Origin: Curvularia clavata
Taxonomy: Eukaryota
Direction: 5' to 3'
NCBI GenBank assembly: GCA_023920165.1
Contig: CP089275.1
Coordinates: forward strand, 1,488,001 to 1,552,000
Length of the DNA stretch: 64,000 bases
The notes beneath the pieces were generated by a model. It did not search any database. It was not told the origin of the DNA and saw only the letters and a list, made by a program, of their open reading frames with translations. Positions 41,810 through 63,605 of this stretch are shown here, in pieces (positions within the stretch are counted from its first letter, which is position 1; every line of letters begins with the position of its first letter). The position numbers and the translations under genes were made by a program.

Positions 41810-42866
41810 ACACCATAACACCCTTGTACTACTGATGTTCCGACTTTCACGAAACATGAGTGGGATGCTAATGAGTAATAATATATCGTCCCTGGGTAGT
41901 CTTCATGGTTTGGGAGTTTTCTGTTCCCATACTCTTTGTACATAACTGTTTGGCTTTACAATTGGGTCTTTGCTGGCCCCTCGCATAGTCACTCCTTAAA
42001 ATCGTTTAGCATATTCATAGTGGTAATGTAAGAATACTGGTTTCACCAAATTTTAAATGTGCCTTTGTTGTGAGTCGCGAGTGTTTCCAAGTGGTCGAAA
42101 AATGTTGCATCACTGCTCGCTAACAACCAAGTGACAACTTGATGGTGACATCTTTTCTCTAGCATCATATCAGCCTCAACGCGGTTAATATGTTGTTGCA
42201 AAAAAAGACGCGGTTGACTTTTGCCGCTCAAGTTTGGGCAGCCATTATGTCAGCAGAAGTCAGGCTTCGTTGGTGCCAAACAAGGAAGGAGGGCTTCTAA
42301 AGCGAGTTTTAGTAGCCCAGAATGCCGGGACGCGCGTGCCCCACAGCGCGTGATCGGGTGGTACGGGCGGGGAACGGTACGCTCGCCTTGTATACACACC
42401 ACCATTACGCGCTTCTAGAATGACGGGAATTCGAAAAAGAAGGGCGTCCGGGATTAAATACGGCTTATGTCTTTGGCGCACCTGGGTTGTGGCGGTCGAC
42501 AGCGTAAGGCGGGTATGGTGGTACGACAAGAGGGGGCGGGAACCTGAGTTCAAACGTGGGGTAGGGTGTCAAGCAAGGAGGGGAGTGATTGAAAGTGCGG
42601 GGAAGCTGATGCCCCCCGTTTCATCTGATTCGATAGGAGGCAATGCGAACGTATCCGCGGGACGCGGCCCAAAGGTACGTACCACCCCTTATGTACCTTC
42701 GAGGGTGAGTTGACAACCGTGGCACCTTTTCAGTGCTCACTTACACGGTCCTTTTTGCAAGTCTCCTACTGCCATCTTTTTGCTATTCTTTTCAGGAACA
42801 AGACAGCCAGCAGATGCGGGTACCGGGCTTCTTCTCCTCTCTTTGCTTGCCCTCGTTCAAGACAGC

Positions 42867-45800
42867 ATGAGGTCCTCAGCAAACTGTCTCGCCGGGTGCA
42901 GGACAGCCGTTTGTCCGCCGCGGGGCAGCGTGCTTGCTGCCTTGAAGCCACCAGTCGTCAGATCAACGCCTGTGTTTCGACGACAGATCCGCTCCAAGCA
43001 CAACGGGATCCAAGTTGGTACTACTGGCGTACGCAGCCTTAGCCGTCCGCTCCCGCTGTCCCTGCAGAAGCATGTCTCGCAGATTACTGCTGTTGCGCGC
43101 TATGCATCCCATGCACCGGAGCCACACGACGAGGAATTGCCTACCTCACCGCCTTTCTCTGCAGGTCCGTATGCGAATTTAACCATTGGTGTGCCAAAGG
43201 AAAGCTTTCCCGGCGAGAGGCGTGTAGCCATTACGCCACAGAATGTGAAGCTACTTCTCAAAAAAGGTTTCTCGCGCGTCTTGGTCGAGCGGGGTGCGGG
43301 GGCAGAGGCTCAGTTCGTAGATGAAGCGTACGAACAAGCTGGTGCCCACGTCGTAGACCGCCGAAGTGTCTTCTTACAAAGCGACATCTTGCTCAAGGTG
43401 CGAGCGCTTAGCATCGATGGGAAGGATAGTGAGGTCGACTCCATCCGAGAGGGTGCTACTGTCATTTCCATGCTCTACCCCGTGCAGAACCGACCAACTG
43501 TTGAACGTCTAGCCTCCCGAAAGGCGACCGCGTTTGCCATGGATATGGTTCCTCGAATTTCTCGAGCCCAGGTTTTCGATGCTTTGAGTTCCATGGCAAA
43601 TATTGCTGGCTACAAAGCTGTTTTGGAGGCCTCGAATCACTTTGGACGCTTTCTCACTGGTCAAGTCACTGCTGCTGGAAAAATTCCTCCTTGCAAAGTT
43701 CTCGTTATTGGAGCTGGTGTCGCGGGTTTGAGTGCTATTGCTACTGTCAGTATATTCTTAGTCCAAGGAGGAATAACACTAACGCCCCAAAAATAGGCTC
43801 ACCGCATGGGAGCCATAGTCCGTGGTTTTGATACTCGCTCCGCTGCACGTGAGCAGGTCCAGTCTCTTGGGGCTGAGTTCATTGAAGTCGACATCAAAGA
43901 GGACGGATCTGGTGCCGGCGGTTATGCCAAAGTAATGTCCAAGGAATTCATCGAAGCCGAAATGAAGCTGTTCTACGAACAGTGCCGAGAAGTCGATATC
44001 GTGATTACCACAGCTCTGATCCCAGGAAAGCCCGCCCCTAAACTCATTACCAAGGCTATGCTCGGTGCAATGAAACCCGGCTCGGTCGTGGTTGATTTGG
44101 CCGCCGAGGCTGGCGGCAATTGCGAAGCTACTGTTCCTGGACAGCTGATCAAATACGAAGGAGTCAATGTCATCGGTGGGTGACGATACATGCTGAAGGT
44201 GTTCGCTGCTGATTCAGTGCCTAGGCTATACCGACCTTCCATCTCGTTTGCCTACTCAGTCATCCACTCTTTACTCGAACAATGTGACCAAGTTTCTGCT
44301 CTCACTGACCCCGAAAGACAAGAAAGATAAGTACTACGACGTTGATCTTACCGATGAAGTCACCCGCGGAGCTATCGTTACCTACAACGGCCAGATTCTG
44401 CCTCCAGCTCCGCGTCCTGCTCCTCCACCAGTTCAGGCTAAGCCAGCCCCGTCGCCAGCTGACCAGGACGCAAACGTCGTCGCTCTAACGCCATGGCAAA
44501 CCCAGACTAGACAGGTAGCAACTGTGACGGCTGGTATGACTACTGCTCTTGCCCTCGGAAAGCTTACCGGCCCACTGTTTATGTCCAACGCATTTACATT
44601 CGCTCTGGCCAGTCTTATTGGATACCGCGTCGTATGGGGAGTGGCACCAGCACTGGTACGTAATCTTTATACTGAAGTCAAGCAGGAGGCGATTACTAAC
44701 GTCATGAACCTGAACTTAGCATTCCCCATTGATGAGTGTGACGAATGCAATTTCTGGAATGGTAGGTGTAGGAGGTCTCTTCGTCATGGGTGGCGGGTAC
44801 CTGCCGGAAACGATTCCCCAGACGCTCGGTGCCTTGTCGGTCCTACTCGCTTTTGTCAACGTATCTGGAGGCTTTGTTATCTCGAAGAGGATGCTAGATA
44901 TGTTCCGGCGCCCCACGGACCCGAAGGAGTATCCTTGGCTGTATGCTATCCCTGCAGCTTTGTTCGGCGGCGGCTACATAGCAGCCGCCTCAACTGGTAT
45001 GGCTGGTCTTGTCCAAGCAGGCTACCTTGTCAGTAGCCTTCTCTGTATGACTTCGTTGTCAGGGTTGGCATCACAGACCACGGCTCGTCGTGGGAACATT
45101 CTGGGTATACTCGGTGTGTTCTCTGGTATCCTGGCGTCGCTGGCAGCCGTTGGCTTTACCACCGATGTACTTACTCAATTCGCTGGATTGGCCACTGTCG
45201 GTACTGTCGCTGGACTTGTGATTGGACGGCGAATAACTCCAACATCCCTTCCGCAGACAGTGGCAGCGCTACACTCGGTTGTTGGTCTTGCTGCCGTTCT
45301 CACCAGTATCGGCAGTGTCCTTGAGCACACTGGCGAGATTTCGACTCTCCACATGGTTTCTGCGTACTTGGGTGTCCTCATCGGTGGAGTCACATTCACT
45401 GGATCGATTGTAGCCTTCCTAAAGCTGGCCGCAAAGATGAGCTCGAAACCATTAGCACTGCCTGGTCGACATGTCATCAACAGTTCACTTCTGGGGGCAA
45501 ATTTTGCGACCATGGGAGCATTCCTGGCTTACGCACCAGGTGCACCTATGATAGGTGCGGCATGTCTTGTTGGCAACGCTGTTCTATCGTTCATCAAGGG
45601 ATATACCACCACGGCTGCCATCGGTGGAGCCGACATGCCTGTGGTCATCACGGTTCTGAACGCATACTCGGGCTTTGCCCTCGTTGCTGAAGGCTTCATG
45701 CTTGACAACTCATTGCTGACAACCATTGGTGCACTCATTGGTGTATCCGGTTCCATCCTTTCCTACATCATGTGCGTGGCCATGAACCGGTCATTGACTA

Positions 45801-46449
45801 ATGTGTTGTTTGGCGGCATAGCGCCAACAGCCCAGGCACAATCGGCGGTTGAGGGAGAGATAACCAAGACGACAGCCGAGGAGACGGCCGACTCGCTTGT
45901 CAACGCAGAGAATGTCATCATCGTTGTAGGCTACGGAATGGCCGTGGCCAAGGCGCAATACGCATTGGCTGAGTTTGTGAGTATGCTGCGTGCAAAGGGC
46001 GTCAATGTCCGATTCGCCATCCACCCGGTTGCAGGACGGATGCCTGGTCAATGCAACGTTCTTCTAGCCGAAGCCAGTGTTCCGTACGACATTGTCCTGG
46101 AAATGGACGAGATCAACGACGATTTTGCGGACACGGACGTAACGCTCGTGATTGGGGCAAACGATACGGTAAACCCAATCGCTCTGGAGCCAGGCAGCGC
46201 GATTGCAGGCATGCCGGTCTTGCACGCATGGAAGAGCAAGCAAGTCGTCATCATGAAGCGCGGTATGGCCAGTGGATATGCGGATGTGCCGAACCCGATG
46301 TTCTTTATGGAGAATACCAAGATGTTGTTTGGCGACGCCAACGACAGCTGCAATGGTAAGTACTCGGGCCATGACTGTGAGTGAAGCATATGCTAACGAC
46401 AAGGTCAGCTATCAAGCGCGCGCTGGAGGAGAAGATCAAAGGATTGTAG
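42867..46449 (+). CDS. NNT: Mitochondrial proton-translocating NAD(P) transhydrogenase (fused alpha-beta)
   Basis: Exons 42867-43745, 43797-44175, 44225-44655, 44720-46355, 46409-46449. Presequence, [59 protein letters not shown]. Confidence 0.97.
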
Positions 46450-52070: not shown

Positions 52071-52086
52071 GTCCGACGCGTCGGAC
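52071..52086. promoter_or_regulatory. Perfect 16-bp palindrome GTCCGACGCGTCGGAC (CCG-N6-CGG), candidate Zn2Cys6 binding site
   Basis: Seen 85 bp upstream of the Zn2Cys6 gene ATG; CGG triplets are the established Zn2Cys6 half-site. Confidence 0.5.
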
Positions 52087-52171
52087 GCCCGTCTCAACAC
52101 CACGGAAGCTCCGTCGACCGCATTCCGTCCCCGACTGTCCACAAACGTACCTCAGCTGCCGCAGGCTCGAA

Positions 52172-54581
52172 ATGTCCGCACTAACAGATCAGCTGGCAGC
52201 GCCATCTGACAAAAGACGGCGTATTGATCGCGTCATAGCAGCATGCGATCTGTGCAGAAGAAGAAAAGTGAAGTGCAACGGCGAATTACCATGTGCATAC
52301 TGCATCCGGAAGAATCACGCTGCTACATGTGCCTTCAGTGGTCCATCCAAGGAAAATCAAATTCGTTCTGCTGGAGGCTCTCCTAATACACGCGTTCATA
52401 CTGAGGGTTCTCCTTTTCGTCGACTTCACTCAGGCCATACGTCAGAAAATCGAGATAACAACGTCCGAACAAACACTCCTCAAGGATCACGATACCAGCA
52501 TGACAACGCTCAAACTGGGACATCTTTGTCACCGACTCTGAGCAGAGATGACCAACAAGCTGACACAGTTGTACCCCTTGAAGGCCGTATCCTCCGTGAT
52601 GCACAAGGCAAGCTCATCTTCATTGGTGATTGCGCACCATTGTCCTTTCTGCAAACGGTCAAACATCTCATTACATCCGAGGTGGACTCGGGAGTTCCGG
52701 TACAGGCCGCGAGGGATCCCATCATCGAAATTACGCGGCCCACATTAGTGGACCAACAACATTGTCCGTCCGTGGAGCTTCATCAGGTGGATGTTCTAGT
52801 CTCAGAGTACATTGTGGCTAGCAGTGGCCTTGTGCAACTATTCGAACGCGAGGATCTATTGCCCGAGCTGAAGCATTGGGCGAGTGGTCAGAATTCCGGC
52901 CCTGATGATGCTGCGGCTGCTGTCTTTTATCTGGTGCTCGCCATTGGTGCCCAAGACAAGTTCGAAGACAAAGCAGAAGCCTGGTTCAAGCATGCGCTCA
53001 ACATTCTACAAAAATTCTTATGCAGTAATATGAATGTGTCAACGGTACAGGGCTTCACACTAGTTGCTGTCTTTATGCTCCGCGCTTCTCAGCCAAATGG
53101 CGCATACTTGTATTTTTGTAAGCGGCAGCATATATGACCGGTTCCAGATTACTGGCTGACAACCACTAGCTTTGGCTGCACGAACTGCCTATGCGATTGG
53201 TCTTCACCGGACTGAAGTCAATGCATCTTTTGGCCAGAATATCAGACTAGTTAGGGATCGCATATGGAAGAGTCTACGTGTTATTGACCAACTTATCAGG
53301 TAAGTTTGCATGATACAAGTTCTCTTAGCAGGTGCCTGCAACGAAATTTTGAACAATCTGCTAATGCGACAAAGGTATGTTCAATGTTTTCCTACATCGA
53401 GTATTTCAAAATACCGACCCTTCCATGGTCCCATTGCGGTATGACCCGCTAACCAATGCTGTGCGGCAATGCAGTAATGTTCTAGGTCGACCTCCCTCCA
53501 CTTCTGATGTTGACTGCACTGTCAAATACACGCCTCCTGAAGAAATACAGGAAGACTTTAATGCCAATGTCCTGGATGCAAGTGTGCAAATCTTCATGAT
53601 AATCGAACGTGTAGTCGTTGAAGTGTACTCGCGCAAGCGGATATCTTTACGGATTGCTGATTATGTGTCGAAGCAATTGAAGAGTTGGGCATCCAAATGG
53701 CTCAGCAGTCTATCTGATGTCACAGCCAGACGACCCTCTCGTGAGGCAACAATCGGCGCTTGCTCTACGTTATGCTCCTATTACTATGGTATCATGCTAC
53801 TTACCCGGCCCTTCCTGATATACGAGCTTTACGAGTACATGGGTGCTTCGCTCAAGAGCGGAGGCACACCAGCTGATCATCAAGAGAAACGCAAATATGC
53901 GGATGCCGCAATTGATGCTGCTTCGGTGTTAGTTGATACGCTACGGAATTTGATCAACGCAGATCAGCTGCCTCGCAGGATGCCATTGGTGGTGTAAGTT
54001 GAATTACGCTTCAAAACTGACGTCTGCTGATCAATCCTAGATCCTGGCTCTTTACCGCTACACTAGTGCTAGCTGTCGGTATTCTAGGGAACTCTGGTCT
54101 TCTTTTGGAGGATACCTGCAAAGAAGGCATTGCCTGCATGGATTACTTTGGCCAAGTTGACCATCACGCTCGTCAATACTCACACGCTGCTCAGTCTCTG
54201 CTCAAAATCACAACAGCACATGCGAAGAAGAGGGAACTCCATCTGCGCCGAAAGAGGAAACAGGCTTCATCTGAATTGTTTGGTCTACTACCAACCGAGC
54301 CGATTCATCAGGCACATTCAACCGATGGTCATCAGCCACGACCAGAGCCCCGTTTACTAGCCCCTACGGAAACCACGCAGCAGAATCTCCCCGCACATGC
54401 GCCGCTTGATTGGACTATTTACGATGCTGACTTTTTCGCTCTGCCATGGCCAAGTGAGAACGATCAAGGTCTTCAGGATTTCCTTCAGCCAGGCACTCAT
54501 AATCTTGATGGTGCATCTGTGGCTGATATACCGCTCTTTCCCATTCATGACCAACAGATGGCCAGCGGATTCTTCCCTTAG
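52172..54581 (+). CDS. Zn(II)2Cys6 transcription factor with fungal middle homology region
   Basis: ACDLCRRRKVKCNGELPCAYCIRKNHAATC, AYAIGLHR, DQLISNVLGRP, LLTRPFL. Exons 52172-53117, 53170-53299, 53475-53993, 54041-54581. Confidence 0.93.
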
Positions 54582-54639
54582 ACCAATGGTAATCTTGGCT
54601 GTCATTAGAGGTTTCAAACTACTCTTCATATTCGAGCTT

Positions 54640-55955
54640 TCAATGTGTGACCTTCGTTTCGCTGGTTTCATCTCTTGATGTTCGTAGGAACGGAATCAGC
54701 TTGGTGCCTCCAGTGCCAACCAGCTCTTGCGTCTTTGGCTTTTCCGAGGCCATCTTCGTAGAAGCAGAAGCGATATCCATCCTCTTGATATGGCTTACTG
54801 GCTTCCCCATGCGACTTGGTATGATAATGTACCTTGTAACGAGGGCAATGTGCTTATCGCGGAAGCCACTGAGGGCTGCGACTGCTGCGTTGAAAGCTGA
54901 AAGAAGGACAGCATTGTCTTGATGGTCATTCACGTAACTGCGGATGTTCGCGATGGATTCAACGTCGTCCAAGAATCTAGCGTGGGGTCCGGGCATGTAT
55001 CCACGCATTTCTGAGTGGAAGCCACCACTTCTCGAATGGTCCACAGAAAGCACCGCGTCGAAGAACTGTAGTAAGGATGATTGTCCATTCGAACCACCTC
55101 GGTAGGCTCGCCATGTGCCCTTGCCATTGCCTTCGTCATAGAACACACCGTTCGGGAGACCGGCAGCTGCCATGTTCATGCTACCAGCCAAAAATGGTCG
55201 AATGGTGTGATAAAACATCTGGGGATCGCATCGCTCATCCATACGTTCTAGGAGTTTTCCAATGCTCTCCATGCCTGTCTCAAAGTATTGCAGAGCATTT
55301 ACAACTGTCGCGGCATCGTCCCTCTCCACGGCGTCAATGGCGCCGAGCATAGTCTCGATGAGTGGGCCAGCCCTTGCCTCCATAGCATTCGAGATGATGA
55401 AGAACCATGATTCGTCATCGCTGCCAGTAGCTGTGTGCAGAGAAACCATGTTCTCCGGTTGGGTCAGATCAGCGTCATCCGACAATGGTCTCCAGTTCCA
55501 TAGGTTCAGCGAGGCATATGTGGCAACGGGGTGTACCTCAAGATGTGCAGCCGTCTCAAGGAAAGGTACAGTTATCGCAGGAGGTAATCGCTGTGTTTTT
55601 AGTCAGTGCTGTTGGTCAATACACGGGAAGAGGCTGCCTTGCTTACTTCTGAAGGCTCAGGTCCTGTCCAAATGTATCCTTGGGCCATGACAGCTAGCAT
55701 CGAGTGTGCTCTTTGCCATTCTGCCTCAGTATCCAGATATGATGTCTCGAGAACAGGCAATTCATCAACCCATTGTCGTATTTGTTGTGTTTCGATAAGG
55801 ACAGGAAGCTTTTCTATGATCTGTTCCCAGGGGCGGTAGTAGGCCTGGGGTAATTGTGACAACGGAGGCTCAGCTGGGAGAAACCCATTTTTGGAAATGC
55901 CATATTCTGGTAGCGCAGAAGGCGACGGAAGAGTGGGAATTTTGTGAGGACTCAT
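54640..55955 (-). CDS. BNA2: Indoleamine 2,3-dioxygenase
   Basis: Exons 55955-55647 and 55590-54640. FYHTIRPFLAG, GGSNGQSSLLQFFD, MRGYMPGPH, FRDKH (proximal His), GTGGT. Paralog class not determined. Confidence 0.95.
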
Positions 55956-56363
55956 TGTGAACAGAACAAATTGCACTAAGATTCTCTAGATTCTGAGCTA
56001 TAGGTCTACTAAAAGAGCGGCGAAGACCGCATTTATCATAAAGCTATAAAAGCCATGATGGCCCACTTGGCTAGGTCAAACAGGTATCACGATTGCGAAA
56101 GGCCTAGGCGCGTCGGATCGGATGCCAGACGGAAGCGCAACGGAAGTCAAACGGGCGCGCGACGGAACATCGTCGGATAGCCAAAACAAGAAGGTGGCAG
56201 GCTAACGCATACATGCCGGTTCTTGTGCCAGGTGTTGCAAGACGTAAGTGAAACTGCCGAATATATATTTGGACGTCTGTTTCTCATTCAAATTTCACAA
56301 ACCGTTCATTCAGTCGTCAGCAAAAGTTCGTGTTACACATCGTCATCTTGATCCATAATCATC
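55956..56363. promoter_or_regulatory. 408-bp bidirectional IDO/kynureninase promoter with a CGG(A) cluster
   Basis: Head-to-head genes; seven co-oriented CGG triplets in 56111-56178; TA-rich boxes near 56045 and 56261. Confidence 0.65.
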
Positions 56364-57836
56364 ATGGACGTTTCCAGCGCGATCAAGCAACTCCGCCAAG
56401 GACAAAAGCCACAGTGGCCCACAGACGCCGAGTCATTCGACTTTGCCCGAAAACTCGATGAAAGTACCGAAATACCGCATACGTTTCGCCCCGAGTTCGT
56501 CGTTCCCAGCAAAGCGCAACTCAAGCGAAAAACTCTCAAGGACGATGCGCAAACAGCAAACCCAGCAACGAGTGCAGACGATGAGGCCATATACTTCTGC
56601 GGCAACTCGTTAGGCCTCCAGCCGAAGGCTGTCGGCGAGCACTTGAACGCCTACCTCAAGACATGGGGGTCCATAGCTGTCGGCGGCCATTTCACTGCCC
56701 TTGAGGATTCACCACTTACTCCCTATCAAGACATGGCTGCTGAATGTTCAAGAAAAATGGCCAAAATCGTTGGAGCATCACCTTCAGAGATTGTTGCTAT
56801 GAACACGTTGACCATCAACTTGCACCTGATGATGGCGGCTTTCTACAAGCCGACTGGAACGAAGCACAAGATCATGTGCGAATGGCGGCCTTTTCCCAGC
56901 GACTGGTATGCAATTGAGTCGCAGATTGAATGGCACGGACTGGACCCAAAGAAGTCAATGTTGCTGGTACAGCCAGACGACGGCTACAGCATGACAACGG
57001 AAAACATCCTCAGGCTTATTGATGAGAACGTTAATGAGCTCGCACTCATAATGCTGCCTGGTATCCAATATTATAGTGGCCAACTCCTTGACATTCCAAC
57101 CATTACTGCCCATGCGCGGAAACACAACATCACGATTGGTTGGGACCTTGCTCATGCTGCTGGCAATGTCGAACTCAAGCTACATGAATGGGACGTTGAC
57201 TTTGCCTGCTGGTGTACATACAAGTACATGAATGCAGGAGCTGGTGCTATCGCAGGTGCCTTCATTCACGAGAAGCATGGCAACAACGACCACTACAAGG
57301 GCCTCAAGGGCTGGTACGGTCACGACAAGTCCTCCCGCTTCCAGATGGACAACCGATTTGTTCCTACACCTGGCGCGCAAGGTTTCCAGTGCTCAAACCC
57401 TTCGATCGTCGACCTCACTTGCTTGTCTGGGGCACTTAGCGTCTTCGAACAGACATCAATGACAGACCTGCGCTCGAGGTCATTGCTGCTTACCGCCTAC
57501 GCTGAACACCTTCTTTCCCAAATCGCCGCACGAAACATCAAAGACGGCGCTTTTCCTTTCGAAATCATTACTCCCATGGATCCTCGTTTCCGCGGCGCAC
57601 AGCTTAGCGTTCTGCTGCCCGAAGACATGTTTGACGAGGCCAGTGCAAGACTGGTAGAGAACGGCGTCGTGTGCGACAAGAGGAAACCAGGTATCATTCG
57701 AGTTGCACCCGTTCCCTTGTACAATACTTTTGGCGATGTTTGGAGGTTTATGCAGATCTTTGAAGAGGCGCTGAGGACGAAGGGAAAGGATCAAAGTCAG
57801 TCGAAGGGGGCAGCGCCAGTAGAGGCTAGACTTTAG
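56364..57836 (+). CDS. BNA5: Kynureninase (PLP-dependent), C-terminal ARL
   Basis: Intronless 490 aa. YFCGNSLGLQP, MNTLTINLHLMM, GWDLAHAAGN, WCTYKYMNAG (PLP Lys), IRVAPVPLYN. Confidence 0.96.
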   Translation: MDVSSAIKQLRQGQKPQWPTDAESFDFARKLDESTEIPHTFRPEFVVPSKAQLKRKTLKDDAQTANPATSADDEAIYFCGNSLGLQPKAVGEHLNAYLKTWGSIAVGGHFTALEDSPLTPYQDMAAECSRKMAKIVGASPSEIVAMNTLTINLHLMMAAFYKPTGTKHKIMCEWRPFPSDWYAIESQIEWHGLDPKKSMLLVQPDDGYSMTTENILRLIDENVNELALIMLPGIQYYSGQLLDIPTITAHARKHNITIGWDLAHAAGNVELKLHEWDVDFACWCTYKYMNAGAGAIAGAFIHEKHGNNDHYKGLKGWYGHDKSSRFQMDNRFVPTPGAQGFQCSNPSIVDLTCLSGALSVFEQTSMTDLRSRSLLLTAYAEHLLSQIAARNIKDGAFPFEIITPMDPRFRGAQLSVLLPEDMFDEASARLVENGVVCDKRKPGIIRVAPVPLYNTFGDVWRFMQIFEEALRTKGKDQSQSKGAAPVEARL

Positions 57837-58111
57837 AGCAAAGATTTCCTTTTATTTGGTTTGAGCGAGTTATGATAACTATGGTAGATCTAGACAAATA
57901 TCTGATCAAAATTTTTTTGTTAAAAAATAGTCTTGGAATGTTAATTTGGAATCTATGAACACCTTATCGAGATACTGCACGAAAACACCTTAGCGGATGC
58001 AACGCCGTAGTATTATAATGTATTGATTTCACAGAACTTCAATCCGCCACACGAATGCTAATGATAGATACTTGGAAACCCGCCTCGCAGACTCTACTCA
58101 GAGCCTCTTCT

Positions 58112-58474
58112 TTAGGCACAGCAACGCACTTCACACCTCTTGCAGATAGTTTCGCCCTGATCATCCAAGTTGCAATCAAACTGAATGATATCAGATAAAC
58201 ATTCGTGCTGGCCAGAAATATAGAATGTATCTACTTACACAGCTGCCTCTTTTGCAGAAAGCATTCCAACGAGTGCAGATGTCACCTCCTTGTGATCTGG
58301 TGAGCACCTCGCAGACATTGTCGGCTCCAAGCGAACATCTCTAAGGGCTATTTAGTTTTCTGTTCACTACATATAGAGCTGTTTACACACCCCCGAGTCG
58401 CATGAAGTGAAGCGGCGGCAAGCTGCCATTGCGTTCGCAGCAAAGAAAAAGGTTAGAATGGCAGAGATCTTCAT
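58112..58474 (-). CDS. Small secreted cysteine-rich protein (84 aa, 12 Cys), effector or antimicrobial-peptide candidate
   Basis: Not in the ORF track. Exons 58474-58391, 58340-58239, 58180-58112 (two phase-0 introns) give MKISAILTFFFAANAMA-ACRRFTSCDSGRCSLGADNVCEVLTRSQGGDICTRWNAFCKRGSCFDCNLDDQGETICKRCEVRCCA. Confidence 0.82.
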
Positions 58475-59795
58475 GATGAACGGATAAGATCAGGTATATG
58501 AAACTGCGTCGATTTATTAAGACTGAAGACGAAACTCAGGACAATAGTGCGATGGAGAAATAAATGAGTAGCCGAAAGGACCTAAATATTCAGCGGAGAT
58601 AGGACATTCATGTGTTTGAATCCCGAAATGGCCGTTCGGTAAAATTTGGAGGTCTACATTCGCAGCTCGGTTGATCAAATAAAATAGTGCGCACTCCATA
58701 TTGGAGATATCCACTCTGATCGTATTCATCCCTCATTATCAAACGAGTGACCGACAAAGGCACCGAAATTCCCGCCGTGCATCTTCTAGTATTGCGTTGC
58801 GTTTGAGAACATCTCCAGTATCTTGTTAGGTCGCCTTGCGAAGCCGATACTAACCAGCCCTAAGTTTCCGCTATTACCATTACTCTAATAGAATCCTGCA
58901 GAGAATTTAACGACTTATACACTTTATGTAACCCTGCATGTTTTTAGAAAGCGTCTAAAACTAGGCCTAATTTTCGTGAATCCGGCTGAATTATGCACAT
59001 CTCAATCTGAGTGCTGATGTGAGAACACTAGCACCCATGCCGGTACCTACGTACGTATACGGAATAAAAGAACTCCTCGTAAGACAGCGACGTGTTACTC
59101 GGGGTATTGCCCTTATTCTCGGCCGAAGATCACGACGGATCGTAAGGTACTATATCAATTGCGTCATTTTATTTTTTTCGAGGAAAGCGGAGCATGATAG
59201 ATTTGTGGCAGTTGTTACAAGAACCAAGCCCCTGTTCTCAACATCTCAAGAATCCTAGTCCCAGAAGTGACAGCAAATGGCGCAAGAACGTTCTTTATAG
59301 CATGCACCCATTTCAAAAGTCCAGATGAATTGATTCATAGATAAATAAAATAAACAAGTGTGCGCAATCGCGGTGGTCTCGGTATCGACCAAAGTCTTAG
59401 GTTGGGGGAACAGTAAGAAACAAGCAGTCCATTTAACACAAGGGTAGCTATAAGAAACTTGACATGTATGTCAGAAAGCCGTATTTTATGCTTCTAGAGA
59501 CGTTTGCTGATACTCAGCGAGCGTGACGTTGTCACAGATGACGTAGTCTCTTTTAATGGCCATGTGACGATCTTGAAGCTAGAATCGGAGTAATTACTTG
59601 ACTGCTAATACATGAACGGTGGAATTCTCGGCTCCGAAATATAACAAACAACTCAAATGTCGTCCTTTTAGCATTTTCTATCACATGGAGTACGCCAAGG
59701 CAGAGCGTGGTCTTCTATCAAAACTTGGATATTTGAAAACATACGCCACCACAGCGGAACTCCTCTCGCCATGCCAATATCGCTGTTCCACAAAC

Positions 59796-60695
59796 TCAAG
59801 GCTGTGAACTACTAGCATCTGCATCTGTAGTTGTCAAATCCACCCAACACTTCGCCATCTTCTGCTTCGCCGGCCAAAACGGCCTACGCCCTTCCTCGTC
59901 CTCAAAAGTCTCACACTCAAACTCGCTAATCACCCTACCCTGAAATGGCTTCTGCGCGCCATCCGTCCAAACATGGATTACCGGATCTGCCATAGCCTCA
60001 ATCTGTACGCCTCTGAACCCCATGAGCGCCGCTTCACGCTGCAGCCACCTCGCTGTCGCAGCCATGATACCTTTGCCCTCATAGTCGTGTCGCGTAGACG
60101 TCGCATTACGCATGAGCACCTGTCTCGGTCCTGTTGGCTTCCACGAAGCAGGATCCCGCTGATCGCGCTTCTCGAGCGCACCGTAAAGGATAGGAAATTC
60201 CGGCCACGCGGCGAGCAGTGGCTTCATTTTTTCTTGGTTCAGCGGCGTATAACCGTCATAGCTCAGCACTACGCTGACGAGCGGGAAGTCCATTTGCTCC
60301 AGTAGCCGCATGCCCTCTGCTGCCCTGCCTTGGCTCTTTTCTACACTGTGTAAGGCTGTCTCGTCGAAATCCCAGAGAAGAGCGCCGCCGATGGCTTTGG
60401 CCTCATCGGTCTTGCATTCGTACTCTGTGTCGAATACACCATATGAAAGACCAGAATCAATCTGGTGGCGGACGAGGTATTCCAGGGTGATAGCCATATC
60501 TAGTGTCCAACGACCTGTTTCGTGCTCAGCAGGCCATACCTTGTTCCAGACACTGGTGTGGAAACCATGGCTGTGGGCCATGATGGCGGTAACCCAGGGA
60601 AGGTGAACAGGTTTCAGTTTGCGGATCTCATAGCGAGGTGGCAAAGTCGAGGGGTTCGACGGCGTAGGTACACGGGTATTTGTGAATCCTGGCAT
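59796..60695 (-). CDS. GNAT-fold putative N-acyltransferase
   Basis: 299-aa ORF with YEIRKL at the N-terminus and motif-A-like ATSTRHDYEGKGIMAATARWL...GFRGVQIE. Confidence 0.7.
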   Translation of the reverse strand: MPGFTNTRVPTPSNPSTLPPRYEIRKLKPVHLPWVTAIMAHSHGFHTSVWNKVWPAEHETGRWTLDMAITLEYLVRHQIDSGLSYGVFDTEYECKTDEAKAIGGALLWDFDETALHSVEKSQGRAAEGMRLLEQMDFPLVSVVLSYDGYTPLNQEKMKPLLAAWPEFPILYGALEKRDQRDPASWKPTGPRQVLMRNATSTRHDYEGKGIMAATARWLQREAALMGFRGVQIEAMADPVIHVWTDGAQKPFQGRVISEFECETFEDEEGRRPFWPAKQKMAKCWVDLTTTDADASSSQP

Positions 60696-61485
60696 TTTTA
60701 AGTCTCAAATGACTCTTTCTTTTCTTGTTTGTAGTTAAGGCACTAATGTCGATACACCGGCGGTGTTGCGGTAGGGATGCAACGCTGAAATGCCAAATTT
60801 TCACTGAGAGGTCCCTCAACAGGCGGCAACAATGAAGGAAATGATGAGAAAGAGCTGGCTTCTTATCATCATTGTGGACAGTAAGCGACTGGGGAGATCA
60901 ATGTTGACGAATCGTGCATACAAGCTGCAGACTAAGAAAAAGAATTGTTGCCCACTTTTCCACCAATCTTTTTGCCATTCCACGACCACTGTCAAGATAA
61001 GCAATGAGGGGACTAAGAAGCCAAGGCGAATTTTCAATATCAAGCTTTCGTTCTGGTCCACGAAACGTACATTTGCTGGTCAGAGAAAGCTAGAAACTGG
61101 TACCATTTTCCTGGTGCTGACATTTTCTCTAGCTTCCTGAAAGTAAGCACAAGTCACTATAACCTCGCTTACATGCATCTTAGATTAGCATGGCACTGAC
61201 ATCCCTGCTCTCGCATTGAGAAGAATTTTAGGCATCTTGTGGGGTGCCGCACGGTACGGAAGGAACGGAGACCTAAAGTGAACCCACTCTAGCACTAAAC
61301 GTTTAGACTATGGCTATCAGACTTTAGCGTATTGTGAGGGCCACAATTCTAACCATATACCCAGATCGGCTCACACACTGTCGACCTAGGCTAAATCAAC
61401 TGCTGTCGTAATTCTTACTAATCATAGTATACACATGGCTGGAGACAATGCCAGCTAGCGATATCATCCCCAAGATTCCCCGCTC

Positions 61486-63605
61486 TCACATCAGCCCTTT
61501 GCCTTCTTGTAGTAGCGCGATACCTTGCTCTTTTAACTTGAACTTTTGTATCTTGCCGCTCGCTGTCTTGGGATAATTGTCTACCCAGAAAACGTATTTT
61601 GGTACTTGGTTTAGATGTCAGCTTGTATCGCGCTTGCAATCTTCATGTATACTTACCCAGATGATGGCTTAGCTTTTCCCTGACCCAAGTTCTCACTTCA
61701 TCGGCGGTTATTTTTCCGTCTTCTCCAGCATGTCTTACAATGAAAGCTGCGACGACCTCACCGTATCGCTCATCTGGTAGCCCGACGACACTAACTTCGC
61801 TGACGGCTGGATGGGCGAAGAGACAGTTCTCAACTTCTAATGGGTGGATATTCTCTCCGCCTTTGATAATGAGATCTTTGATCCGACCGGTGATCTTGAT
61901 GTAGCCTTCCTCATCCATGGATGCCTCGTCGCCAGTGTGCATCCACATAATGCCGTCTTTATCTGGTTGGAGTACTTCTGCCGTGCGCCCCGGATCGTTC
62001 CAATAACCTTTCATGAGGAGATATCCCGAGACGGCCAGTTCACCACGTTGACCCACATTGAGCGTTTGTGACCAGTCAGAAGCATTGACGACCTTGGCAC
62101 GAACATGTGGAAGAAGACGGCCTACGGTGTTGATGCGCTTCTCAATGGGATCGTCGGTAGTGGTCATGGCGGATACGGGACTTGTCTCTGTCATGCCATA
62201 GCAGATTGTCAATTCTGTCAGGTTCAAGATCTTATGAAGCTTGCGCATGAGCTCGGCAGGAATGGAGGAGCCGGCTGCAATGCCAGTGCGCAAATGCTGG
62301 AAACCTTCGTATGGCACAACACCGTTGGCTAGGAGCTCCAGCTCCGCCACAAACATGGTAGGAACACCGTATAGGGCAGTGCACTTGTATTCGCGGACGG
62401 CTTCGAGAGTGGCAAGATCATTGAACGCCTCAGTCGGGAAGACTATGGCACTTCCATGCGTAGCTGTAGCCATGTATCCGAGGATGCATCCGAAGCAGCT
62501 GTGTATAGTCAGGCGTCAAATAGTTCAATGCATGCAGGGCGACTTACTGGAAGAGTGGAGGTGGACAACAAACCACATCGTTTTCCGTCAGTAACATCCT
62601 GTCGCCGATACTATTGCCATTGTTCAAGATACTTCTGTGGCTCAAACACGCAGCTTTCGGCATGCTCGTCGTACCCGATGTAAATTGGATATTGACAATA
62701 TCATTGGGATCCAATCCCTGGTCCTCCAATGCCGCGCCTTGGCCACCGTCCTCTATTATATTTTGGTATCTTCCCAAGCTCCTGTACTCATCTAGACTTA
62801 TCCTCCCTTGGGCATTGTCCACCAATACGACATTCTTCAGCGAAGGAACGAGTTCGGATTCGAGTTTCGGGCCAGTAAGATTAGGTATCAGATGGGTAAG
62901 CAACGGGATGTTCGGGCGTGGGTCTTTGCGAGGAAGGTTTGTTTCGGCTCCGATTATGAGATGGGCGGTGTCCAGGTGGTTGATTGCGTTCAGAACCTGT
63001 GGGGCGTTGAACGAGGGATTGAGGGGTACCTATGAGTCAATTGGCTTACAGCCCATCTTTTTTCACTCCGGATTCTTACATACCAGTATCGCCCCCAGTT
63101 TGAAAAGCGCATACGTGATCTTTGAGGTCATCAGCTTTTGTTTCTCACAATATAGACTCGCAACATACAGTAGCAAACTCAATGTTATTGCCCAAGCTCA
63201 CGGCGACCCTGTCTCCCTTCTTTACGCCCAGGTTTTGTAGTCCCCTTGCGAGCCTGTTCGAATCGCGATCCAGTCCATCGTACGTCAACCGGATGCGTTG
63301 ATGGTGCGAGATTACTCTACACAAGACTTAGTCATGATGCGACCAGACGGATAGTGGCCCGCATACGCATCACGGTCACCATACTGTCTCACAACTCCTG
63401 CAAAGTGTTGGGGGACAGTTTGTTCGAGCAATGGGGGCTGTACCGAGTTGTCAGTACAATGGAAGCTATGAGGTCGTGGGGAAGTGGGGCCGAATTGATG
63501 TACCTCGGTAGGTCCAATGCTGTATGCTTGTGTGAGGAGGCCTCTCTGTGTAATTCGCACAGGCTTAGGGTATCTTGTAGCTCTTGACACGAGCTTCCGG
63601 AGCAT
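61486..63605 (-). CDS. Acyl-CoA synthetase (ACSF2-like), probably mitochondrial
   Basis: Seven exons. Basic presequence, [55 protein letters not shown]. Confidence 0.93.

Follow-up and report, generated by a model that had tools for sequence, protein, structure and literature searches.

The present study concerns a 64-kb stretch of contig CP089275.1 of the plant-associated mould Curvularia clavata (64,000 nucleotides, hereafter the window), in which an indoleamine 2,3-dioxygenase (IDO) gene lies head to head with a kynureninase gene and a gene for a Zn2Cys6 transcription factor (TF) converges on the IDO gene. The IDO–kynureninase pair is very probably the idoB–kynU2 module known from Aspergillus nidulans, and the Zn2Cys6 protein, as judged from sequence, is probably a pathway-specific, autoregulated regulator of this pair. 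The TF is assigned this role because its linkage to the pair is conserved, arrays of the motif TCCGWC occur at both the promoter shared by the pair and the promoter of the TF, and no array is present at L022, a metagenome locus that carries the pair without the TF. The pair and its inducible catabolic character are already published for the A. nidulans orthologues; what appears to be new is the third gene, conserved beside the pair, with its candidate site. Gene structures, transcription, gene order and motif distribution were observed in this analysis, and tryptophan induction and enzyme function are taken from the A. nidulans work; what we infer is the binding of the TF to the motif, its role as an activator and not a repressor, and the identity of its inducer.

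In fungi, the breakdown of tryptophan by IDO bears on NAD supply, on the interaction with hosts, in which the ido genes of Aspergillus have been studied, and on the engineering of tryptophan-derived products. The occurrence of a candidate regulator and a candidate site in many crop-associated Dothideomycetes makes the induction of idoB and kynU2 directly testable. As one more clustered Zn2Cys6 regulator, the TF would be useful to specialists and not surprising.

Conservation of the gene trio

As read from the sequence, the TF and IDO genes are convergent with 58 bp between their stop codons, and the IDO and kynureninase genes are divergent with 408 bp between their start codons. To follow this arrangement in relatives, metagenome contigs were scanned with an alignment of IDO, which gave 58 loci, 31 of them with a real IDO relative, and tblastn was then performed with the three window proteins. 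In 29 loci the IDO was IDO-beta-like (62–87% identity), and seven of these loci end inside the IDO gene or no more than 200 bp after it. The TF was found convergent directly after the IDO in 21 of the 22 informative IDO-beta-like loci, and wherever the upstream flank exceeded 500 bp, which was so in 21 loci, the kynureninase gene was divergent upstream of the IDO. The head-to-head layout, present in 21 loci, leaves 356–670 bp between the start codons. The sole exception, L022, holds the pair without the TF (IDO 62% and kynureninase 58% identity), and in the 8 kb downstream of it MFS, SARAF and KIN17 genes were found and the TF was absent. Loci L026 and L027 carry an IDO paralogue (46% identity) with neither kynureninase nor TF nearby.

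In named species, adjacency was judged by the positional locus tags or accession numbers of the homologues, and 22 species were comparable. In 18 of them the TF is at most two genes away from IDO or kynureninase, and these species cover Pleosporales, Mycosphaerellales, Cladosporium and three Sordariomycetes. The full trio is consecutive in seven species (Neocucurbitaria sp. VM-36, Corynespora cassiicola, Cladosporium fusiforme, Dothistroma septosporum, Cercospora beticola, C. kikuchii and C. berteroae), and TF and IDO carry consecutive tags in eight further Pleosporales. Among the Sordariomycetes, TF and kynureninase are two apart in Neoarthrinium moseri and Xylariales sp. PMI_506 and consecutive in Geosmithia morbida. 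A preliminary description of the window, made from its letters, had already given the gene order and both spacings, with which the Pfam matches and the coordinates read here agree, and had proposed that the regulator is linked to the pair; with the counts from metagenome loci (21 of 22) and named species (18 of 22), this link stands as far as synteny is concerned.

The flanking genes change between lineages and the order of the trio stays the same; therefore, the trio is regarded as a conserved unit. The genes that follow the trio downstream in the window were found only in one close relative, L007, and the flanks of the other long loci hold differing Pfam families, namely GNAT/lipase/MFS, acetyl-CoA carboxylase, ferric reductase/D123, carboxylesterase, XPB helicase and chitin synthase.

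A fused gene model of Seiridium cupressi (P0106, 1944 amino acids) was set aside as synteny evidence because its IDO part is 42% identical and may be a paralogue. This model joins the IDO part to a TF 37% identical to that of the window and to dynamin domains. A relative of the window TF may stand beside a different IDO paralogue in this species.

Distribution of the TCCGWC motif

The most widespread 6-mer in the non-redundant orthologous promoters was TCCGAC, with 46 copies in 15 of the 16, and the CCG triplet that it contains is typical of zinc-cluster sites. In the window, the half-sites of the array in the shared promoter lie on a single strand at spacings of 11, 11, 11, 11, 11 and 5 bp, approximately 160–220 bp upstream of IDO and 190–250 bp upstream of kynureninase. 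The sites upstream of the TF are at 52072(+), 52080(-), 52110(+) and 52124(+).

Taken over the entire window, TCCGWC shows no enrichment, with 51 sites where 55 are expected. Clusters of at least four sites in 70 bp occur at only two places in it, the shared promoter and the region upstream of the TF, and a cluster of four sites was reached in none of 200 Markov-1 random windows. The density of the motif is 9.4 per kb in 12 shared promoters and 14.2 per kb in the 200 bp upstream of the TF, compared with 0.96 per kb in the other 204 kb, corresponding to about 10-fold and 15-fold over the background, respectively. TCCGWC ranks first of 120 letter permutations in both promoter classes, and at least four sites were found in none of 1864 background windows of 400 bp. 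In the 12 trio sequences, all clusters of at least three sites in 200 bp lie at the shared or the TF promoter, such a cluster being present at 11 of the 12 shared promoters and 10 of the 12 TF promoters. The locus without the TF, L022, has no TCCGWC in the 500 bp upstream of its IDO and no array, and L026 and L027, the loci of the IDO paralogue, have only two sites in the 500 bp upstream.

Regulator or conserved neighbour

Based on this distribution, the following mechanism is proposed. Tryptophan or a catabolite would activate the Zn2Cys6 protein, which would bind the TCCG(A/T)C arrays in the middle of the shared promoter and drive both IDO and kynureninase, and would also bind the array upstream of its own gene, resulting in autoregulation. 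IDO would open the route by converting tryptophan to N-formylkynurenine; deformylation by a formamidase encoded elsewhere, or slow direct cleavage, would supply the kynureninase, and this enzyme would release alanine together with anthranilate, or with 3-hydroxyanthranilate when 3-hydroxykynurenine is the substrate. In its widest form, to which we give about an even chance, this proposal makes the TF the first pathway-specific transcription factor for the kynurenine route in fungi, an autoregulated activator that responds to tryptophan or kynurenine and reads TCCG(A/T)C arrays, linked to idoB–kynU2 since before the split of Dothideomycetes and Sordariomycetes and later lost or replaced, for example in Aspergillus.

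Several points weigh against a regulatory role for the TF, and some of them favor a less likely alternative, in which the Zn2Cys6 gene is a mere conserved neighbour and the arrays are bound by another factor, such as a general regulator of amino-acid or nitrogen metabolism or a different zinc-cluster protein. The pair is induced by tryptophan in Aspergillus, and no named Eurotiomycete occurs among the best 120 of 152 TF matches, which is weak evidence of absence given that the search relies on shared words; therefore, a different factor would act there and could act here too. A TF-like gene lies away from the kynureninase gene in three of the 22 species, namely Elsinoe batatas, in which the match is only 40% identical, Microdochium bolleyi and Conoideocrella luteorostrata. 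In Lecanosticta acicola, the TF is on the same contig with accession numbers 66–68 apart, which leaves its adjacency ambiguous. The retention of the pair without the TF in L022 also fits a neighbour, but the array is missing from that same locus. In addition, the trio alone is conserved while its flanks change, and the CCG-containing motif stands no more than 150 bp upstream of the start of the TF itself in 13 of 16 loci, both of which argue against a mere neighbour.

The remaining points concern the samples, the motif and the literature. The metagenome loci were drawn from few studies, and with several near-duplicates among them they represent approximately four identity groups or lineages and not 21. 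Because the shared promoters served to define the motif, finding it enriched in them is partly circular, and the independent motif evidence consists only of the TF-promoter clusters and the contrast with L022 (n = 1). The shared promoter of L008 has two sites only, and the region upstream of the TF has no sites in L017, L011 and L012 and one in L013. A strict 11-bp spacing was considered as a general feature and rejected, as spacings in relatives mostly lie between 4 and 37 bp and no period dominates. The literature search yielded no data on binding, deletion or induction for the window TF. With these points taken into account, a regulatory role for the TF is still preferred.

The Zn2Cys6 protein and related regulators

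The Zn_clus family (PF00172) was matched in 52172–53137 with an E value of 2.7e-9, and the six-cysteine pattern CX2CX6CX5CX2CX8C at residues 25–53 of the TF fits CX2CX6CX5-12CX2CX6-8C. The Fungal_trans middle homology region (PF04082) was not detected in the single exons of the window, in which this region is split by introns; the protein aligns end to end with orthologues of 707–712 amino acids (66–79% identity) that bear both PF00172 and PF04082. The best named match is from Bipolaris (79% identity), and Pyrenophora, Alternaria and other Pleosporales are also among the best matches of the trio. These matches mark the source as a Pleosporaceae-like Dothideomycete that is absent from the named matches themselves. 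The matches of the DNA-binding domain to Gal4 and Put3 are weak (Gal4, E 1.6e-4), the names Put3, Asg1 and Fgr27 found on TF homologues are automatic source names, and the ESM Atlas, queried with a TF orthologue, gave generic Zn2Cys6 clusters only.

Among known regulators, Aro80 of Saccharomyces cerevisiae, a Zn2Cys6 protein, activates genes of aromatic amino-acid catabolism in response to aromatic amino acids, tryptophan among them. It recognizes repeated CCG half-sites, and its own promoter contains sites too, which resembles the sites predicted for the window TF; it differs in that it controls the Ehrlich route (ARO9 and ARO10) and not IDO and kynureninase, and in that it is not clustered with its targets. 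For clustered catabolic regulators of filamentous fungi, such as qutA/qa-1F, prnA and alcR, the Zn2Cys6 gene lies in or beside the catabolic genes that it controls and is often autoregulated, and multiple half-sites are found in divergent promoters. The window trio has the same clustered layout with another substrate pathway, and its TF is known from sequence alone.

In yeast, zinc-cluster factors often activate their targets via non-canonical half-site binding (PMC10250231). The arrays of single TCCG sites with variable spacing found here fit such binding, although the accessible part of that work says nothing on the window TF.

No transcription factor for the inducible ido genes is named in the accessible parts of PMC11530996 or of the network study PMC7557846. 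A literature search for a regulator linked to kynureninase or IDO returned only unrelated papers, most subscription journals being beyond its reach. The same search gave no paper for six locus tags of TF orthologues, unrelated papers only for the locus tags of Aspergillus neighbours, and nothing relevant to the window TF in the Aro80, Neurospora and DAP-seq literature.

The IDO enzyme and the published idoB–kynU2 cluster

The IDO family (PF01231) was matched in both minus-strand open reading frames (ORFs) with E values of 1e-118 and 1.2e-30, and the two exons span positions 2–93 and 91–411 of the 412 profile positions. The protein is 89% identical to the IDO of Bipolaris zeicola. In alignments with human IDO2 and IDO1, H350 (...RDKHIAL...) stands opposite the histidine of ...RSYHIT... 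in IDO2, which we take to be the proximal haem-ligand histidine, and the loop GGSNGQSS is aligned with GGSAAQST. Several IDO matches with 74–84% identity carry the source name 'IDO beta type', which is the sole support for the subtype besides linkage. The window and 11 of 21 orthologous promoters share ATAAATGCGG or ATAAAGCAGG, placed 70–86 bp upstream of the IDO start codon.

The following data were reported for A. nidulans in PMC11530996 (Microb Biotechnol 2024): idoB adjoins kynU2 (ANIA_01858/ANIA_01857) on a bidirectional promoter; idoB and kynU2 are induced by 10 mM tryptophan and idoA is not; the idoB and kynU2 cDNAs complement yeast bna2 and bna5 mutants; and idoA deletion mutants cannot live on minimal medium without a supplement of nicotinamide or tryptophan. 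The same paper reports the cluster in Alternaria and other ascomycetes too. In A. fumigatus, idoB (Afu4g09830) and Bna5 (Afu4g09840) have neighbouring locus numbers (PMC5786828).

The window resembles the A. nidulans cluster in the head-to-head placement of IDO and kynureninase about a common promoter, here of 408 bp, which is the synteny by which idoB is recognized in PMC11530996. It differs in its conserved Zn2Cys6 third gene and candidate binding motif, as the accessible part of that paper names no regulator. The suggestion in the preliminary description that the linkage of IDO and kynureninase may already be known is thus confirmed by the published idoB–kynU2 cluster.

Kynureninase and its substrates

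The kynureninase gene is matched by PF22580 (KYNU_C) and PF00266 (Aminotran_5) within 56364–57836, and its product matches human kynureninase (3e9k) with an E value of 2e-111. K287 in TYKYMNAG, which is aligned with SYKYLNAG of the human enzyme, is presumably the pyridoxal phosphate (PLP)-binding lysine of this fold type I enzyme, and H109, S344 and N345 stand at the positions of human H102, S332 and N333 in the alignment. The protein is 84–90% identical to kynureninases of Pleosporales, several of which are named 'Kynureninase 2', with 88–90% identity to those of Alternaria. An exhaustive representative search with the kynureninase named ten representatives in other taxa only, including Gaeumannomyces, Ramalina, Blastocladiella, Mucor and an animal, and is uninformative on a second copy in Pleosporales.

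Concerning substrate preference, histidine and asparagine at the positions of human H102 and N333 are nominally the hallmark of 3-hydroxykynurenine-preferring enzymes, and tryptophan and threonine there form the bacterial kynurenine-preferring motif (PMC11329768). According to the same source, generalists with the H/N pair exist, and the W/T motif is inessential for high kynurenine activity. The window enzyme, with H109 and N345, does not show this W/T signature of bacterial-type, kynurenine-specific kynureninases. In yeast bna5 mutants, the A. nidulans kynU2 orthologue restores 3-hydroxyanthranilate (PMC11530996). Based on H109/N345 and this complementation, the enzymes of the trio can therefore also feed NAD synthesis; based on H109/N345 and the existence of H/N generalists, the sequence therefore lends no support to a shunt that yields anthranilate only. 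By analogy with the Aspergillus orthologue in yeast, the window kynureninase probably accepts both kynurenine and 3-hydroxykynurenine. Neurospora has a tryptophan-inducible kynureninase that acts on both substrates, together with a constitutive hydroxykynureninase.

The preliminary description had proposed a tryptophan-to-anthranilate shunt separate from NAD synthesis. This proposal is not supported, given that His109 and Asn345 are kept and that the A. nidulans orthologue restores 3-hydroxyanthranilate in yeast. The term self-contained, which had been used for the cluster, is not supported either, since the route has to draw its formamidase from outside the cluster or do without one. The remark of the same description that the window holds no formamidase, kynurenine monooxygenase or later NAD-pathway gene was right for the 34 further window ORFs of at least 150 amino acids, among which Pfam detected none of these families, smaller or intron-rich genes being outside the scan.

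These data also bear on the idea that the pair is the organism's sole, constitutive BNA2/BNA5 route to NAD, with the TF tuning NAD supply and not tryptophan catabolism, which we consider improbable. The H109/N345 pair, as the nominal hallmark of 3-hydroxykynurenine preference, and the yeast complementation would suit such a route, but the NAD-essential gene in A. nidulans is idoA and not idoB (PMC11530996), and some Ascomycota have IDO alpha, beta and gamma (PMC4191572). Moreover, the names 'beta type' and 'Kynureninase 2' on the closest homologues imply that other types occur in the reference species, and the IDO paralogues of L026 and L027 occur without kynureninase or TF.

As a possible formamidase-like neighbour, an Abhydrolase_3/BD-FAE domain fused to the kynureninase model of Pyrenophora teres (P0258) was considered and rejected, the family assignment being generic; the C-terminal part of this fused model had no match in the window. 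A gene of the Abhydrolase_3/BD-FAE family was also observed in L007 (10686–11357), approximately 2 kb beyond the TF. Such a gene could be a formamidase-like neighbour in some lineages.

Transcription of the trio

Contigs of four runs (X1, X2, X9 and X10) were placed on the window; X1 and X2 represent one organism in two studies, and X9 is from a third study with another organism label. The contigs are unstranded and carry no expression level or condition. In X1 and X2, all three TF introns and the IDO intron are missing from the contigs, exactly at the modelled borders, and the contigs of X9 likewise lack the 56-nt IDO intron. Contigs of all four runs cover the kynureninase gene. The skipping of the modelled introns marks the contigs as RNA-derived and thus shows expression of all three genes. 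Contigs of the TF start at 52121 and 52133, the motif cluster upstream of the TF being at 52072–52129, and the IDO contig of X9 extends to 55980.

Within 54246–54724, contigs cross the 58-bp gap between TF and IDO, with X9 covering 54297–55980, X10 covering 54497–54724, and X1 and X2 covering it throughout. The TF and IDO mRNAs may overlap at their 3' ends, of which unstranded contigs are no proof. This arrangement recalls a further explanation, that the TF is a repressor or acts by convergent overlap with IDO (transcriptional interference) and not as an activator. The stop codons only 58 bp apart and the contigs of X9 and X10 that run from IDO into the last TF exon would be in line with interference, but unstranded contigs cannot show an overlap within a single transcript, and clustered catabolic regulators of such domain architecture are mostly activators; we regard this explanation as very unlikely, and activation by the TF is preferred.

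In the region 56077–56363, the kynureninase contig starts at 56088 in X1, upstream of the motif array, and at 56311 and 56313 in X9 and X10; a single X2 contig bridges the entire trio (52121–57869). This pattern could reflect an alternative upstream start under some condition or DNA carry-over. The region 57942–59000 is without contig cover in the four runs, which is no sign of silence, and contig depth cannot rank expression.

Gene models and other genes of the window

The coordinates of the features are listed in Table 1. Gene models were obtained by aligning the Bipolaris orthologues to the window and placing GT..AG borders, and all introns are GT..AG. The lengths in orthologues are 707–712 amino acids for the TF and 419 amino acids for IDO. 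The introns are of 52, 175 and 47 nt in the TF gene and of 56 nt in the IDO gene. The second TF intron (53300–53474) is more than three times as long as the other trio introns (47–56 nt), yet it is spliced out in the contigs of X1 and X2. The G+C content of the window is approximately 49%.

Table 1. Positions of the trio genes and of the predicted promoter elements in the window.
Feature	Position	Strand	Details
Zn2Cys6 TF gene	52172-54581	+	4 exons, 711 aa; ATG at 52172, stop ends 54581
TF exons	52172-53117, 53170-53299, 53475-53993, 54041-54581	+	orthologue alignment and GT..AG borders
IDO gene (idoB / IDO-beta type, very probable)	54640-55955	-	2 exons, 419 aa; ATG at 55955, stop ends 54640
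IDO exons	55955-55647, 55590-54640	-	orthologue alignment and GT..AG borders
Kynureninase gene ('kynureninase 2' / kynU2 type, very probable)	56364-57836	+	single exon, 490 aa; ATG at 56364
Bidirectional promoter common to IDO and kynureninase, 408 bp	55956-56363	.	read from sequence
TATA-like ATAAATGCGG	56027-56036	-	81 bp upstream of IDO start codon
Predicted TF binding array, seven CCG half-sites	56112-56177	-	all on IDO-sense strand; six TCCGWY, one CCCGTT
Predicted autoregulatory site, four TCCGWC motifs	52072-52129	+	43-100 bp upstream of TF start codon

A gene with several exons for NAD(P) transhydrogenase (AlaDh_PNT and PNTB domains) occupies 42714–46384 on the plus strand, at a distance of approximately 6 kb upstream of the TF. 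The remaining genes of the window are of a housekeeping kind by Pfam: OST48, arginyl-tRNA synthetase, a cation-efflux transporter, GST, RTA1-like, DUF4360 and PHD-finger proteins.

Beyond the kynureninase gene, 59796–60704 on the minus strand encodes a 302-amino-acid protein with no Pfam match. In the ESM Atlas, this protein led to ascomycete 'N-acetyltransferase domain' clusters (score 0.98, TM 0.85–0.87), and it resembled the aralkylamine N-acetyltransferases of arthropods less closely (score 0.91, TM 0.57). Its gene and an AMP-binding gene at 61643–62515 are common only to the window and the close relative L007 and are therefore placed outside the conserved trio. An arylalkylamine acetyltransferase beside tryptophan catabolism would merit attention.

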